A stretch of DNA of 22,538 nucleotides, taken from Candidatus Altarchaeum sp. (GTDB taxonomy: Archaea; Altiarchaeota; Altiarchaeia; Altiarchaeales; Altiarchaeaceae). The translations under genes and the position numbers were made by a program. The notes beneath the pieces were generated by a model. That model was given only the letters and a program-made list of their open reading frames with translations. It made no database searches and had not been told where the DNA came from. The first letter of the stretch is position 1. Every line of letters begins with the position of its first letter. This document shows positions 182 to 11,046 of the stretch, in pieces. Where the stretch lies: contig JAGWDQ010000130.1 in the NCBI GenBank assembly GCA_018260615.1, positions 1 through 22,538 of the forward strand, read 5' to 3'.

Positions 182-1471
182 ATGAGATACGAAATAACAA
201 AAACAACATTAAAAGGAACAACAGATGCCCCGCCCTCTAAAAGTTATACTCACAGGGCAATTATTTGTGCTTCATTGGCAAACGGGCGATCAAAAATAAC
301 AAATTATCTGGAAAGTAATGATACCAATGAGACAATTCTAACATTAAAAAAATTTGGAATTGCTATGGAAAAGTCAGATAATGAGCTAAATATTTGGGGA
401 AATGAAAATTTAAATGATGTAAATGAAGGTGAAAAAATTATAATAGACACAATAAAAGAGTCCGGCTCTACTTTAAGATTTCTAATTCCTGTTGCATGTA
501 TATCAAAAATTAAAAAACCGATAATTTTTGTCAGAAAAGGACGACTAAAAGACAGGCCTGTTGAGCCATTAATGGATGCATTGAGCAAATTAGGTGTCCG
601 ATATGAAATACGCAAAGACAGGGCTGATGATAGCGAACTGATCACTATTTATCAGGGAATCACCGGTGGAAAAACAGAAATTCCGGGAAATATAAGTTCC
701 CAGTTTATAACAGGTCTTCTGTTTGCGTGTTCAAGGGCCGAAAACGACACGGAAATAAATTTAACAACCGAAATTGAATCAAAGTCATATGTAAAAGTAA
801 CCCTGGATGTCTTAAATGATTTTGGAATAACTATTGATGTATCCGAAGATATGCGAAAATTTAAAATATCTGGAAATCTGTCTTATAAAAACAGAGAATA
901 TATTGTTGAGGGTGATTATTCTTCTGCTGCATTTTTGCTTGCCGCAGGTGCAATTAATGGAGATATCATTGTGAAAAATTTAAATACAAATTCAAAGCAG
1001 GGAGACAGGGAAATTTTAAACATTCTCGGGAGCATGAATGCAAAAATTGAGATAAAAGAAAACATTATTCATGTAGAAAAATCAAATTTAAAAGGGATTG
1101 AAATAGATGCAAAAAATATACCTGATTTAGTTCCGATTTGCGCTGTGTTGGGATGTTTTGCTGACGGAGAAACAAAAATTTTTAATGCGGAGAGATTGCG
1201 ACTTAAGGAAAGTGACCGGCTGAAAGCAATAACGCAGGAATTAAGAAAGATGAATGCAGATATAGAAGAAACCAAAGACGGATTAATTATTAGAAAGTCC
1301 GATTTAAAAGGAGCGGAAATAAATCCGCACAACGACCACAGGATAGCGATGTCATGTGCAATTGCAGGATTATCGGCAGAAGGAAAAACCACAATAAACG
1401 ATGCAGAATGTGTCAATAAATCATATCCTTCTTTTTTTGAAGATATTGGGCGATGTTTCCATACTACATAG
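182..1471 (+). CDS. aroA: 3-phosphoshikimate 1-carboxyvinyltransferase (EPSP synthase)
   Basis: Motifs PPSKSYTHRA, ESGSTLRF, SSQFITGLL, LRLKESDR, HNDHRIAMS, KSYPSFF. The last residues (CFHTT*) are read from a CRISPR-like repeat. Confidence 0.97.
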   Translation: MRYEITKTTLKGTTDAPPSKSYTHRAIICASLANGRSKITNYLESNDTNETILTLKKFGIAMEKSDNELNIWGNENLNDVNEGEKIIIDTIKESGSTLRFLIPVACISKIKKPIIFVRKGRLKDRPVEPLMDALSKLGVRYEIRKDRADDSELITIYQGITGGKTEIPGNISSQFITGLLFACSRAENDTEINLTTEIESKSYVKVTLDVLNDFGITIDVSEDMRKFKISGNLSYKNREYIVEGDYSSAAFLLAAGAINGDIIVKNLNTNSKQGDREILNILGSMNAKIEIKENIIHVEKSNLKGIEIDAKNIPDLVPICAVLGCFADGETKIFNAERLRLKESDRLKAITQELRKMNADIEETKDGLIIRKSDLKGAEINPHNDHRIAMSCAIAGLSAEGKTTINDAECVNKSYPSFFEDIGRCFHTT

Positions 1472-1614
1472 TGCGATTTAAACAAATAATATCCTTCTTT
1501 TTTTGAAGATATTGAGCGATGTTTCCATAGTATATCTTATGATTTAAACTTGTCGAGACGCTACGAAGGTATTTGGTGGGTCATAGTTTCCATACTACCT
1601 GGTACAATTTAAAC
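1455..1614 (-). CRISPR. Degenerate orphan CRISPR mini-array: 3 repeats (29 bp), 2 spacers (37 and 36 bp)
   Basis: R1 1455-1483 GTTTCCATACTACATAGTGCGATTTAAAC; R2 1521-1549 GTTTCCATAGTATATCTTATGATTTAAAC (23/29 to R1); R3 1586-1614 GTTTCCATACTACCTGGTACAATTTAAAC (25/29 to R1). Spacers are 1484-1520 and 1550-1585. On the minus strand all repeats start GTTTAAA and end ATGGAAAC, like class 1 (type I-B/III) repeats, so minus-strand transcription is inferred. No cas genes are in the window. Confidence 0.8.
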
Positions 1615-2063: not shown

Positions 2064-2220
2064 ATTTTTATTTCTTCTTATATTAGGGTATTGAAATTTT
2101 CTTTCTTAAAAAAAGAAAAGATTTTACGGTGAACGATGTTATTTATTGCTTTTTAAATTTATAAATTTTTCATTTTTATCTTACATTCCGCACATTTACC
2201 ATAACGATATAAAAAATGCT

Positions 2221-2432
2221 CACACAAAGCCACAAAGTCACAGAGTGTATTTCCCCTTTGTGTCTCGGTGTCTCCGTGTGAGTATAATAAAACGAACTTT
2301 CCTGTACGATAAAAAATTTCAAAATCGGCATATTTACTCGCTTACACTCACTGCCGTTCCCGTATTTCCAAAACTCTCACATCGCTACCGTTCGGAGATT
2401 TTCAAATCGTTTGTAAATAGATTGAAAATTTA
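2221..2432 (+). repeat. Intergenic composite repeat, copy A (CACAAAG heptad imperfect inverted repeat + hairpin-family module)
   Basis: 2221-2280 has CACAAAG-like heptads facing CTTTGTG/CTCGGTG/CTCCGTG. The 26-mer at 2291-2316 recurs inverted at 19549-19574. 2333-2408 is homologous to 5252-5323 and contains the core CGGAGATTTTCAAA at 2393-2406. Confidence 0.75.
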
Positions 2433-5250: not shown

Positions 5251-5491
5251 ATCACTTGCTTATGTTCACTGCGTTAGTGTGTTTCCAAAACTTCACATCA
5301 CTTCGTTCGGAGATTTTCAAATCTCAGCGATTTGAAAACTGCATTTTTGAAATCGTTCGTGTCTTTACAAAATGCTTTGCATTTTCAAAATACTTCAAGT
5401 ATTTTGAAAGATTGAAAACTAATAGTTTTCAGTATTTATAAGATTGAAAATCTCAAAGATTTTCAGTATTCAAAAACTACGAATTTTTGAA
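5251..5491 (+). repeat. Intergenic tandem-hairpin repeat, copy B
   Basis: Core CGGAGATTTTCAAA at 5308-5321, followed by back-to-back dyads: TTTTCAAATC..GATTTGAAAA, TTCAAAATAC..GTATTTTGAA, GAAAAC..GTTTTC, GAAAATC..GATTTTC, TCAAAAA..TTTTTGA. Confidence 0.8.
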
Positions 5492-7480: not shown

Positions 7481-8404
7481 ATGGACAAAATTTTTACTAA
7501 TAGCATAGGCAAACTTTCAAAACAAATAGGAAATTTTGCAAGGGTTGCATGTATTTTGGAGGTAACAACAGAAAAGCCCGGAAATGTCACACCAACTCAT
7601 GATTTTGCCGATACAAAATTTGAAAATTTTATATTTGGCAGCATGCTCATTGGCGATGCTGTTGAGAAGGCATTTACTGATGGATACAAAGAAAATTTCA
7701 ACATAGGAAAACGAATCCATCAGTTCGCAAAGCAGTCAAAAATTTACAACGAAACAAATACACATTTTGGAATCGTGTTGCTTTTTATTCCGCTTGCCAC
7801 TGCATTGGGAATGGCATTGGGAATGATGATGAAGGGAAATGAAAACGAAAAGAATAATAAAATAAGCGATGAAAATTTAAGGAATGCAATTACTCATGTT
7901 ATGAAAAAAACAAATGTTGATGATGCCATTTATTTTCATAAAGCAGTAAAGATGAGCAATGTCAGAGTTTCAAAAGATTTCGGTATTGATAAATTTGATA
8001 TATTGTCTGAAAATTTTATTAAAATTGCAAAAAAAGAAAATATCAATCTGTATCATCTGCTCAAAATTTCTGCTGATAAAGATATAATAGCGAGGGACTT
8101 AACAACAAAGATGGAAATTTCATTTGAGCATCTGGATTTTTTAAAAGGTATTTCAAGAAAAGATATATTGTCCCTGTATTTATTATTACTTTCAAAATTT
8201 CAGGATACTCTGATAATGAAAAAGCGCGGAAGCGAAATTTCGGAAAATGTTTCGGAGATGGCAAAAGAGGTTATTAATGGAAATTTATCTGTTGAAAAAT
8301 TTAGCGATTACCTGTACATTAACAACATAAATCCGGGAACTATCGCAGACATTACAGCAAATGTTGTGTTTTTATACCTTTTAAAGAAATTTTTATATTT
8401 TTAA
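7481..8404 (+). CDS. CitG-family triphosphoribosyl-dephospho-CoA synthase-like protein (archaeal type)
   Basis: EKPGNVT, NTHFGIVLLFIPL, INPGTIAD motifs. Confidence 0.85.
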   Translation: MDKIFTNSIGKLSKQIGNFARVACILEVTTEKPGNVTPTHDFADTKFENFIFGSMLIGDAVEKAFTDGYKENFNIGKRIHQFAKQSKIYNETNTHFGIVLLFIPLATALGMALGMMMKGNENEKNNKISDENLRNAITHVMKKTNVDDAIYFHKAVKMSNVRVSKDFGIDKFDILSENFIKIAKKENINLYHLLKISADKDIIARDLTTKMEISFEHLDFLKGISRKDILSLYLLLLSKFQDTLIMKKRGSEISENVSEMAKEVINGNLSVEKFSDYLYINNINPGTIADITANVVFLYLLKKFLYF

Positions 8405-8405
8405 A

Positions 8406-8437
8406 ATGAAATTTTTAGCGAAAAACATCAGGGGAAA
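8406..8437 (+). repeat. 32-bp direct repeat: stub copy of the pelota 5' end
   Basis: ATGAAATTTTTAGCGAAAAACATCAGGGGAAA is 31/32 identical to 10024-10055; the single difference is synonymous (AAC/AAT). Confidence 0.92.
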
Positions 8438-8793: not shown

Positions 8794-9903
8794 ATGAAAG
8801 AGTATGGAAAATGGTATGGGTGGATTCCTATATTTACTTATGAGGTTTTTTTTGAAGAGGGTATAAAAAAGAGTTTGGAAAAAGGGACCGGTTGGGAAAA
8901 GGTAAATGATAAAGAAAGGGAAATTCTTAAGTCACTCAAGTCATTATTGGCCGATATAGAAAAAGTTTCTATTTATAAAAGGAAAGAAAAAGAGAACGAT
9001 GTTCCATCAGAAAGCGAATATTTTTGGCACATCCTGTCTGTTAAAGAAGATAAAATACAGGATGTTGTAATTTTTTCATCGTCCCATAACGAGGAAGAAA
9101 TAAAAAAAGACAATTATATCTGTGCTGCAAATATAGAGTTTTTAAAAAATTCTGCGAATAATTGTGCGGGGTTAATAAAAATAGAGTTCAATAATATAAA
9201 TGAAAAATATGGAAATGAGGACAGGAGGGTTAAAAATTTTGTAAGGAGAATTTATGTCTGTATCAGGGATATATATCACTCTCACAGTCATCATCATTCT
9301 TCTCACGAAAGACATTTGGATGTAATCAAATGTGAAAATGATGAAGAAGCGATTAACGGCATAATGGAACAATATGAAAAGAAGATTGATGAATATCATT
9401 CTCGTATGAATGAGTGGTTCTGGCATCCTGAAGTTTTGAATGAAAAGGATGCAATAGCAATAATACAACCTGCGAAGGGAGAAATGTTGTATGCTCAAAA
9501 CTTTATAGAATTGTATGAACAGAAAGATCTTAAAAACACATTTGTGCGCGCTTATGAATCGTTTAGCAGTGTAGGAAATGATCTTCTTAGGACAATAGAG
9601 TTCGAAAGAAATAAGATAGAGTCCGAAAGAAATAAGGATGTTCGCTTACTCACCGTTTTTGGTTCTGTATTTACTGTGATTATCTGCGTTTTAACATTTT
9701 TTGTCGGACTTGATGCAATTTCTAAATTAGCACACACAGAAAAACTATTACTCCATACATCTTTTTTTGGTCTTTTTGTTTTTTCAATGTTTTTTGCTAT
9801 TCTGGCGGCGTTAAAATTAAAAGAGAGAAATATTTTTGTTATACTTTTCGTTATGTTCTCTATATTTGCTGTGTTATTTTTAATAACAAGTATATATCTT
9901 TAG
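8794..9903 (+). CDS. Hypothetical membrane protein: soluble N-domain with His-rich loop, coiled coil, three C-terminal TM segments
   Basis: 369-aa ORF with HSHSHHHSSHERH, the heptad IEFERNKIESERNK, and three hydrophobic helices at the C-terminus. Confidence 0.8.
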   Translation: MKEYGKWYGWIPIFTYEVFFEEGIKKSLEKGTGWEKVNDKEREILKSLKSLLADIEKVSIYKRKEKENDVPSESEYFWHILSVKEDKIQDVVIFSSSHNEEEIKKDNYICAANIEFLKNSANNCAGLIKIEFNNINEKYGNEDRRVKNFVRRIYVCIRDIYHSHSHHHSSHERHLDVIKCENDEEAINGIMEQYEKKIDEYHSRMNEWFWHPEVLNEKDAIAIIQPAKGEMLYAQNFIELYEQKDLKNTFVRAYESFSSVGNDLLRTIEFERNKIESERNKDVRLLTVFGSVFTVIICVLTFFVGLDAISKLAHTEKLLLHTSFFGLFVFSMFFAILAALKLKERNIFVILFVMFSIFAVLFLITSIYL

Positions 9904-10023
9904 GTTAAACGGGCATAAAATAAATAAATGTAAAAAAAATTATACAAAAATAATTTGAATACAGGAAATATTGCTGACATTGCAGCAAATATCAGTTTTT
10001 GTATCTTTTAAAGAAATTTTAAT

Positions 10024-11046
10024 ATGAAATTTTTAGCGAAAAATATCAGGGGAAATTTTATAAAGGTAAAGATTGAAAATATTGACGATTTGTGGTGGCT
10101 GAACAATCTGATTGAAGAAGGTGATTTAATTAAGACAAAGACATATCGGAGAAAGAAAATGGAAGATGTCGGAAAAAGTGAAAGAGAGATGGTTATCATA
10201 AAAATTTCAGTTGAAAAATTTGAATTTAACGGGAAAATAATCCATGTTATCGGGAAAATCGTTGAGTCAAGTGATGATGATGTTCCTTTGCACAGTTATC
10301 ATTCTTTTAATATATCAGTTGATGACATTATTGCCCTTGAGAAAATTTTTAACGAATATCACATCGAAATTTTAAAAGAAGCTGAAAAAGGTAACTTTTT
10401 AAGACAAATCCTGATTGTCGTTGTTGATGAAGGAACTGCAAATATCGCATTGCTTAAAGATGTCAGAGTGGAGTATTCTGAAATTTCAGGGAATATCGGA
10501 GGGAAGAGAAATATGGAAGGCAGAGATAAGAGAAAGACGGACTTTTACTGGAATGTTTTAAATTTTATAAAGAAATTTTCTGTTTACAAAATTATAATCG
10601 GAGGGGCGGGATTTGAAAAGGAAAATTTTTATGAATTTTTAAAGGAGAAAGACAAAGAAATTTTAAAAATCTGCGTAATTGAGAATACCGGGAATTGCGG
10701 AGTTAACGGAATTAAGGAAATTATCGGAAGGAGCAAGCACCTGATTAAAGAAATGAATGTCGTTGAGGATGCAAAATTTATTAATGCTTTGATGTATGAA
10801 ATTTCAAAGGACGGGCTTTATTTTTATTCGCTTAATGATGCCGGAAATGCGTTAAATTACGGGGCAATTGATGTATTATTATTGACAAACAGATTTTTTA
10901 ATGAGCACAGGAAGGAATGCGTGGAAATAATTAAAGCGGTAAAGAACAAAGGCGGAAGGATTCATATAACGGATAGTGAGAATGAAGCGGGGATGCAGCT
11001 GGATGCGCTGGGAGGGATTGCGGGATTGCTGAGGTTTAAAATTTAA
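10024..11046 (+). CDS. pelA: Pelota (Dom34) ribosome rescue factor
   Basis: ENIDDLWWL, HSYHSFNI, VVVDEGTANIA, IGGAGFEKENF, GAIDVLLL, QLDALGGIAGLLRF. Confidence 0.96.
   Translation: MKFLAKNIRGNFIKVKIENIDDLWWLNNLIEEGDLIKTKTYRRKKMEDVGKSEREMVIIKISVEKFEFNGKIIHVIGKIVESSDDDVPLHSYHSFNISVDDIIALEKIFNEYHIEILKEAEKGNFLRQILIVVVDEGTANIALLKDVRVEYSEISGNIGGKRNMEGRDKRKTDFYWNVLNFIKKFSVYKIIIGGAGFEKENFYEFLKEKDKEILKICVIENTGNCGVNGIKEIIGRSKHLIKEMNVVEDAKFINALMYEISKDGLYFYSLNDAGNALNYGAIDVLLLTNRFFNEHRKECVEIIKAVKNKGGRIHITDSENEAGMQLDALGGIAGLLRFKI

Follow-up and report, generated by a model that had tools for sequence, protein, structure and literature searches.

The 22,538-nucleotide stretch analysed here (the window) is contig C130 (JAGWDQ010000130.1) of a 148-contig, 2.23-Mb, 33% G+C bin of the groundwater archaeon Candidatus Altarchaeum sp. 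(GCA_018260615.1, termed G000), which is 87% complete. It carries a small CRISPR array, of the repeat family termed DR1, whose leader-distal repeat R1 forms the 3′ end of aroA, the gene encoding EPSP synthase. Orphan arrays and lone repeats are usually regarded as inert intergenic debris, and 'CRISPR arrays away from cas genes' were reportedly the subject of work by Shmakov et al. in 2020. Here, the 3′ coding end of an essential biosynthetic gene received an array fragment together with its leader, which gave the protein a new C-terminus and became fixed. The repeat is also present at about a dozen further gene boundaries, in a recurring design of flank, repeat and copied flank. Neo-CRISPR loci, said to have been described by Nivala et al. 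in 2018 as products of off-target spacer integration, similarly place a repeat-spacer-repeat structure ectopically in chromosomal DNA. However, the 'repeat' of a neo-CRISPR locus is a duplicated local sequence without a leader, whereas the window holds a canonical repeat and a true leader, the local sequence being the flank; the aroA tails of relatives are unlike the repeat, which thus does not stem from local DNA.

Orphan or collapsed arrays (PMC8047081) are likewise short, far from cas genes and composed of a leader and a few degenerate repeats without spacer turnover, but the window array lies inside the coding end of a housekeeping gene, to which it gives the last codons and the stop, and its oldest spacer duplicates the DNA lying beyond the last repeat. 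Stand-alone mini-arrays and cr-like RNAs (CreA, scaRNA and those targeting cas promoters; PMC10120712) also have two or three degenerate repeats and a spacer matching nearby host sequence, and duplication of the terminal array unit has been proposed as their origin (Shmakov et al. 2023; PMC10120712). These mini-arrays reside in cas loci and pair partially with a PAM-flanked (protospacer-adjacent motif) target, usually a promoter, whereas the window array is far from cas genes and its spacer fully matches the coding 3′ end of aroA, a target bordered by the repeat in place of a PAM. Viral solitary repeat units (RNA anti-CRISPRs; Camara-Wilpert et al. 2023, PMC10651486) and virus mini-arrays (PMC6858448) resemble the scattered DR1 copies in being lone host repeats outside arrays, but the DR1 copies are chromosomal, located at host gene boundaries and in some cases translated. 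Finally, insertion with long target duplication, as in the restriction-modification units of the Kobayashi group, keeps the gene whole through a second copy of its end before or after the insert, a style also seen at the pelota gene of the window; at aroA, in contrast, what was carried in is a CRISPR repeat or array, and the duplicate is spacer-sized. Judged by its sequence, the locus is an orphan, leader-bearing DR1 mini-array, and neither a neo-CRISPR locus nor a regulatory mini-array of the described kind. New here are the joining of an array to the end of a housekeeping gene, a spacer derived from the flank, and repeats placed at gene boundaries across the genome.

A CRISPR mini-array inserted at the 3′ end of aroA

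The features of the aroA region, in window coordinates, are as follows.

182-1471, + strand: aroA (EPSP synthase), 429 amino acids, matching PF00275; the last five residues and the stop come from R1
1418-1454, + strand: U, the final 37 nt of native aroA coding DNA (KSYPSFFEDIGR), adjoining R1; source or twin of spacer 1
1455-1483, - strand: R1 (GTTTCCATACTACATAGTGCGATTTAAAC), exact DR1 consensus, leader-distal repeat; its + strand encodes aroA (C)FHTT and TAG
1484-1520, - strand: spacer 1 (U′), a 37-nt copy of U, matching at 35/37 positions here and 37/37 in a sister strain
1521-1549, - strand: R2, degenerate repeat with six changes, all within the middle 12 positions
1550-1585, - strand: spacer 2, 36 nt, higher in G+C than its surroundings and foreign-looking
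1586-1614, - strand: R3, leader-proximal repeat with four changes (three in the sister strain), all in the middle; weak match to Rfam CRISPR-DR44
1615-1793, - strand: CRISPR leader fragment; 1615-1781 homologous to the leader of relatives, 1782-1793 junction sequence
1794-1835, + strand: displaced ancestral aroA tail (LKFKNLKSEKFKK and stop), now noncoding for aroA, recognised from alignment A1 and the tails of relatives
1809-2063, - strand: DUF131 membrane-protein gene (PF01998), ancestral neighbour, convergent with aroA in each of the three same-genus relatives

Comparison with two relatives, G001 and G003 (alignment A1), shows that aroA took up a 339-nt block (1455-1793) at a point 14 codons ahead of the old stop. 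Homology ceases with U, after GAT ATT GGG CGA T (1454), and restarts at 1794 with TTA AAA TTT AAA AAT.... The gene-side join falls exactly at the repeat border. Five new codons and a stop thus come from R1, and the old tail now lies 339 nt farther downstream, sharing its last 27 nt with the end of the convergent DUF131 gene. As the first-pass annotation had noticed, the stop (1469-1471) and the residues CFHTT are encoded within the repeat. The AroA C-terminus reads ...EDIGR-CFHTT, the codons TGT TTC CAT ACT ACA TAG occupy 1454-1471 and all but the first base of these last six codons, stop included, lie in R1. The EPSP synthase domain is nevertheless full-length (Pfam EPSP_synthase PF00275, residues 8-421 of 429, E 8e-109), the lost Lys-rich tail lying outside it. 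Against the sister strain, whose AroA is 97% identical, the ratio of nonsynonymous to synonymous divergence (dN/dS) is 0.18 and synonymous divergence (pS) is 0.085, from which it follows that the truncated, re-tailed gene is functional; by this measure aroA is under purifying selection despite its new C-terminus.

In same-genus relatives AroA ends in ...FFEDIEKLKFKKFKT, ...EDIERLKFKNLKSEKPEK or ...DDLKRLATNKENIMKVHD, each followed by the stop and directly after it by the convergent DUF131 gene. In every other Altiarchaeum AroA the C-terminal part reads ...FFEDI(E/N)(K/R/N)L(K/R)...; EDIGRCFHTT occurs only in this species and the 97% sister, and CFHTT is absent from 16 further Altiarchaeum-like AroA proteins. 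Thus, the earlier proposal that an ectopic array replaced the native C-terminus is correct for the protein, as the AroA ends of relatives differ, but the tail was displaced to 1794-1835 and not deleted. Two further proposals did not hold, namely that off-target Cas1-Cas2 integration built the array in place, since ~170 nt of genuine leader came along, and that R2 is or preserves the ancestral tail, which is LKFKNLKSEKFKK and not CFHSISYDL. Such a de novo array would require an ancestral aroA tail that resembled the repeat and served Cas1-Cas2 as an off-target site, with R2 as the old tail, and the reading frame, open through the second copy, is all that speaks for it. Relatives end in LKFK..., a tail that still lies downstream, the repeat is the canonical cas-linked one of the genus and a true leader is attached, and this origin is considered to have practically no likelihood.

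To judge from its parts, the insert is a complete small CRISPR locus, a leader with a few repeat-spacer units. Repeats R1/R2 and R2/R3 are spaced by 66 and 65 nt, and a degenerate pattern spanning R1 and R3 gave 0.00 chance matches over 100 shuffled windows. The spacers of 37 and 36 nt have the length usual in the DR1 family, in which 98.6% of 3911 spacers measure 35-39 nt. The restriction of repeat changes to the middle 12 positions departs from chance (p = 0.002 for R2, p = 0.02 for R3), so that R1-R3 keep intact both end motifs. No structure was found in the repeat RNA. Positions 1615-1781 align with the repeat-proximal ~170 nt of the leader located between cas2 and the DR1 arrays in G001 and G003 (alignment A3), with a score of 119 against the G001 leader compared with ~30-45 for the flanks of other loci. 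The block 1615-1795 occurs once in this genome and is hence no dispersed element. On the minus strand the order is leader-R3-S2-R2-U′-R1, heading into aroA. Because the leader is homologous to these cas2-adjacent leaders, the array is oriented convergently with aroA, in agreement with the first-pass annotation, and its transcription would run antisense into the aroA 3′ end. The perfect repeat R1 occupies the leader-distal position, which is atypical for CRISPR polarity. For spacer 2, no match was detected in this genome or in the viral contig collections searched.

The second copy of the aroA end, which had been read in the aroA frame, proved to be real: positions 1415-1480 and 1481-1546 form a 66-nt tandem unit with 86% identity. 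Spacer 1 of the sister strain carries a lineage-specific Gly codon of aroA and was therefore copied from this lineage's own gene. R1 and R2 differ at 6/29 positions although, in the sister strain, spacer 1 agrees with the flank at 37/37, and both R2 and R3 carry G19A, a variant of the G003 type that is typical of another DR1 subtype; from this mismatch beside a perfect copy, together with the shared variant, R1 looks younger than R2 and R3 and separate in origin. The structure is formally a tandem repeat, as would result if slippage during replication or an unequal exchange had doubled a 66-nt segment of aroA end and repeat, with no CRISPR enzyme involved and with subsequent drift of the copies. 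However, no second repeat is present upstream of the flank to prime slippage, divergence is uneven between the repeat (6/29) and the flank copy (0-2/37), and the repeat changes are all limited to the middle 12 positions, with the probabilities given above.

The join of aroA and array is authentic. Positions 1400-1850 recur without any difference in one ENA and one JGI assembly, NCBI GCA_002841105.1 agrees up to 1814 and has N thereafter, a Logan contig agrees over its whole reach, and an identical AroA protein is encoded in all four; no other alleles of the aroA-repeat junction were returned from JGI metagenomes, in a search that may not have shown near-identical records. A chimera that joined aroA to a CRISPR array via a shared spacer might be suspected in a metagenome bin of 148 contigs, but the four assemblies come from different pipelines and the diverged sister has the structure with its own substitutions, leaving this explanation a vanishingly small probability. 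The sister strain carries the same array with the same two spacers, including spacer 2, and no spacer turnover was seen between assemblies or against the sister. Apparently, no spacer has been gained since the two strains split (pS 0.085), and the array is, on this comparison, an immune relic. The sister has lost 8 nt of the displaced tail at 1796-1803, outside the part that overlaps DUF131. The array region differs from the sister at 4 positions in ~390 nt, within a patchy divergence that includes 200-nt stretches without any difference elsewhere.

DR1 repeats and cas genes

The R1 29-mer is the repeat of a 56-repeat array located directly behind cas1-cas2 and a leader in G001, while G003 has a one-base DR1 variant in a 20-repeat array and a contig-end copy on its cas1 contig C220. 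A chance similarity of the aroA end to a repeat can therefore be discarded, since the 29-mer is found again in genuine CRISPR arrays and at further gene boundaries. The repeat was found in no other genus (41 genomes searched) and has no match in IMG/VR viral contigs; looking among the terminal repeats of other arrays for variants like R2 or R3 brought up nothing specific. Degenerate repeats of G001 lie at the array end distant from cas2, and the transcribed form is therefore GTTTAAATCGCACTATGTAGTATGGAAAC (R_g), with a typical 8-nt handle at its end. For DR1 spacers, no target from which a PAM could be read was found in the phage collection or in this genome; the ancestral flank is TTA at 3/5 loci, compared with a genome frequency of 3.2%, a post hoc count. 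In repeat, spacer length and leader the window array belongs with DR1-type CRISPR, while neither cognate cas genes, nearby or (apart from a DR1-type cas6) elsewhere in the genome, nor spacer turnover were observed.

Over the initial ~4.2 kb of the window, none of the neighbouring genes, which carry Pfam calls, is a cas gene. The active CRISPR system of the genome is a single complete type I-B operon, comprising cas6, cas8b, cas7, cas5, cas3, cas4 and cas1, which is followed by a different repeat, DR2, with 109 copies that all lie at this one place (C131:15100-22400) and are not scattered. The only Cas1 of the genome is DR2-linked; it shares 52-53% identity with the Cas1 that accompanies DR1 in relatives, compared with ~70-90% for housekeeping proteins. 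From the DR1 operon of G001, cas6 alone has a close counterpart here (78-82%), on contig C100 (30563-31405) beside radB; no other part of a DR1-type cas operon was found, an absence that is unproven in an 87% complete bin. The DR1 arrays of this genome appear to be relics, with the processing enzyme Cas6 as the sole survivor of the module. Type III cutting of aroA mRNA was considered and dropped, as no Cas10 was found in the same bin.

Several observations concern these arrays apart from the aroA locus. Four DR2 spacers match the local virus Altivir_8_HURL (BK059162.1) with 88-100% identity. The targets have CCN as their 5′ flank, probably the PAM of the DR2 system, and the matches probably link this host to the virus. 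The G001 main array contains a 536-nt gene-like insert between two repeats (C44:14115-14650, L075), and in a second G001 mini-array (C60:6300-7300, L076) an inserted small Zn-ribbon gene separates the leader from the first repeat. One G001 spacer derives from DNA bearing a DR1 repeat in inverse orientation, and the leader-proximal spacer of the G001 array matches the present genome at 34/36 positions (C87:16016-16053), possibly reflecting cross-species targeting.

DR1 copies at gene boundaries

DR1 occurs at 13 further loci of the genome, mostly 1-29 nt ahead of start codons. The most structured are the following.

C73: array of seven DR1 repeats with unique spacers
C139, 1076-1279 (L058/L172): perfect 68-nt units of the 39-nt traB 5′ end and DR1, beside ~70 nt of leader, between the divergent traB and gltX
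C79: 33-nt copy of a gene start and half a repeat
C88, 30990-31085: pth2-derived pieces between two DR1 repeats; the copy measures 38 nt
C98: repeat and 36 nt from the yjeF upstream region, of another allele type than the resident allele beside it, with 17 nt in common

The number of units at C139 is three in this genome and two in the ENA copy (L173:1377-1510). In the R_g sense orientation, the repeat stands 1 nt from the start codon at C139, 3 nt at C79, 4 nt at C2 and C129, 10 nt at C88, 25 nt at C92 and 29 nt at C98, and the other end of the C92 repeat abuts a tRNA gene. The repeat upstream of pth2 (peptidyl-tRNA hydrolase) is common to G000, G002 (L094) and G003 (L093) and absent in G001; in G003 the pth2 piece is inverted and adjoins a third repeat family, GTTTGAATCTCACTTGGTATGGAAAC, with duplicated spacers. 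The question raised by the earlier annotation, whether other genes end in this repeat, was answered with two genes besides aroA that take termini from DR1, in both cases the N-terminus. At C87:24607-24700 (L082:1007-1100), a glycogen-debranching-type gene reads through DR1 in frame (MSESPV-MFKSDYVVWK-AEYLITNG), its residues 8-17 being repeat-derived while the N-termini of relatives are unrelated, and a truncated methyltransferase on C109 begins at the ATG of a DR1 repeat.

Among 15 scattered copies, 32/47 mismatches fall in the middle of the repeat and 3/47 in the 8 positions holding TTTAAAT (p = 3e-4), so that the end motifs are kept, which suggests that something still reads them. Cas6 enzymes that act on unstructured archaeal repeats, such as that of Pyrococcus furiosus, bind the 5′ end of the repeat and cut 8 nt from its 3′ end. 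Conservation of just the two repeat ends would follow if the surviving Cas6 is of this kind, because such an enzyme needs both, and both are kept in R1-R3. The copies might thus be retained for function, an idea compatible with the other explanations: the array would act as a crRNA-like (CRISPR RNA-like) or antisense regulator of aroA, and DR1 would serve as a portable gene-boundary signal that combines a TTTAAAT promoter box with a Cas6 site, cutting at which would leave an RNA starting AUGGAAAC. In addition to the conserved end motifs, this idea draws on the retention of the DR1-type cas6 alone, the sense orientation 1-29 nt before the start at the seven loci named above, the repeat ahead of pth2 in three species, the few changes in the array region against the sister (4/~390 nt) and a truncated DR1 copy ahead of a viral gene. 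It is weakened in several respects, since no RNA-targeting effector is evident without Cas10, the repeat itself borders the aroA target, normally a 'self' signal, strain divergence is patchy and zero over 200-nt stretches elsewhere, TATA-like words are everywhere in a 33% G+C genome, in which the DNA ahead of tRNA genes proved too rich in A+T to yield a promoter consensus, and the count of in-frame ATG codons (6/9, p ~0.04) is post hoc. Retention for function is judged unlikely. The viral copy, in Altivir_8_HURL (BK059162.1 ~9446-9468; L105:1507-1529), comprises the first 23 nt of DR1 in sense orientation, 34 nt upstream of gene 18, and is possibly a solitary repeat unit or a promoter piece.

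Origin of the aroA-derived unit

How the locus was made is inferred from its arrangement. The favoured account, judged moderately probable, is that a fragment of a DR1 locus was inserted in aroA while DR1 broke up, and that R1 and spacer 1 represent an aroA-derived unit recombined into its matching site. The DR1 CRISPR locus would have broken up in this lineage, with loss of the cas operon save cas6 and scattering of repeats over the 13 other loci. An older, already degenerate mini-array (leader-R3-S2-R2) would have sat at the aroA end, and a CRISPR unit, consisting of a repeat and a 37-nt spacer taken from aroA, would have recombined with, or been copied into, the matching chromosomal site. 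In general form, the process would be recombination or copy-repair between repeat-spacer units and chromosomal DNA that matches their spacer. Unit-sized flank copies occur at five loci, measuring 37 nt in the window, 39 nt at C139 (two to three perfect units), 33 nt at C79, 38 nt at C88 and 36 nt at C98. Unit recombination accounts for these spacer-sized copies, for the exact joins at repeat borders, for the foreign allele at C98 and for the separate origin of R1. In particular, the C98 copy is of a different allele and shares 17 nt with the resident one, and therefore fits a repeat-spacer unit inserted at a homologous site.

The main rival is self-uptake in place, by which a leader and one repeat landed in aroA, Cas1-Cas2, acting on the new junction of leader and repeat, nicked the repeat borders and a break at the border of repeat and aroA freed the adjacent 37 nt as a prespacer, which became the first spacer and was followed by spacer 2. 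Both leader-bearing ectopic loci, the window and C139, carry spacers identical or near-identical to the DNA abutting the last repeat, C139 repeatedly, and the copy is spacer-sized and begins exactly at the repeat border. Self-spacer uptake with hot spots near an active array was reportedly observed in E. coli by Levy et al. in 2015, and counts for this rival. However, canonical uptake duplicates the leader-proximal repeat, so R1-R3 would have been identical at birth, which conflicts with the 6/29 differences between R1 and R2 beside a 37/37 flank copy; the C98 locus has a unit-sized copy without leader or upstream repeat; and the copies are all direct, though no PAM would orient them. Self-uptake in place is thus regarded as unlikely, if less so than the other alternatives. 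Plain slippage, the third option, gains from the perfect 68-nt units at C139, whose number varies between two and three among assemblies, as expected of slippage, and from the frequency of duplicated gene ends around inserts in this genome. Nevertheless, copies at five independent loci all measure 33-39 nt, and together with the uneven divergence described above this makes tandem duplication a distinctly improbable explanation.

Several points also weigh against recombination of a unit into its matching site. No donor array with an aroA-derived spacer was found, and none of the DR1 and DR2 spacers assembled for this genome and for two relatives matches aroA; the leader-side junction has no informative homology; and the same 37 nt must have been hit twice in succession, which is unparsimonious. 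Near-perfect self copies occur only at the two loci that keep a leader, the window and C139, a distribution that fits uptake in place better, and the 33-nt copy at C79 has a rare spacer length (0.26%). At pelota, gene-end duplications of ~70 nt surround a repeat-free insert, and a general, repeat-independent insertion process may be at work in the genome. Transcription of the array, its cutting by Cas6 and any effect on aroA are predictions.

Should units enter matching sites as outlined, self-derived spacers would remodel chromosomes rather than kill the cell, and 'self-targeting' spacers of the kind reported from these archaea would arise in this way too. Such loci will inflate spacer-based host assignment and self-targeting counts in Altiarchaeum metagenomes. 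A more far-reaching idea, which is speculative and appears improbable, is that DR1 was domesticated in Altiarchaeum as portable gene-boundary modules: units would be copied into spacer-matching sites and survive at gene ends, where they would supply a TATA-like box and an orphan Cas6 site, giving a leaderless message that starts AUGGAAAC with its own start codon, and at aroA, instead, a stop codon and an antisense guide.

Other repetitive and mobile sequences were noted around these loci. An element of ~42 nt (cacctc...ggagattt...) splits DR1 at the same internal point in G000 (C109:21696-21751) and in G002 (L094), and related short elements, very abundant in the genome, lie at 2389-2408 and 5304-5323 of the window. 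Window positions 2207-2320 hold a ~110-nt interspersed repeat with dozens of genome copies at 80-97% identity, one of which lies left of the C73 array. The pelota duplication places ~70 nt over the start of the gene at 8368-8437 and again at 9995-10055 (~92% identity), around a 1.6-kb islet devoid of CRISPR repeats. Upstream of aroA, a TnpB (OrfB_IS605 / Cas12f-like) gene ends ~80 nt before aroA in other assemblies, and positions 1-180 of the window begin within its 3′ end.

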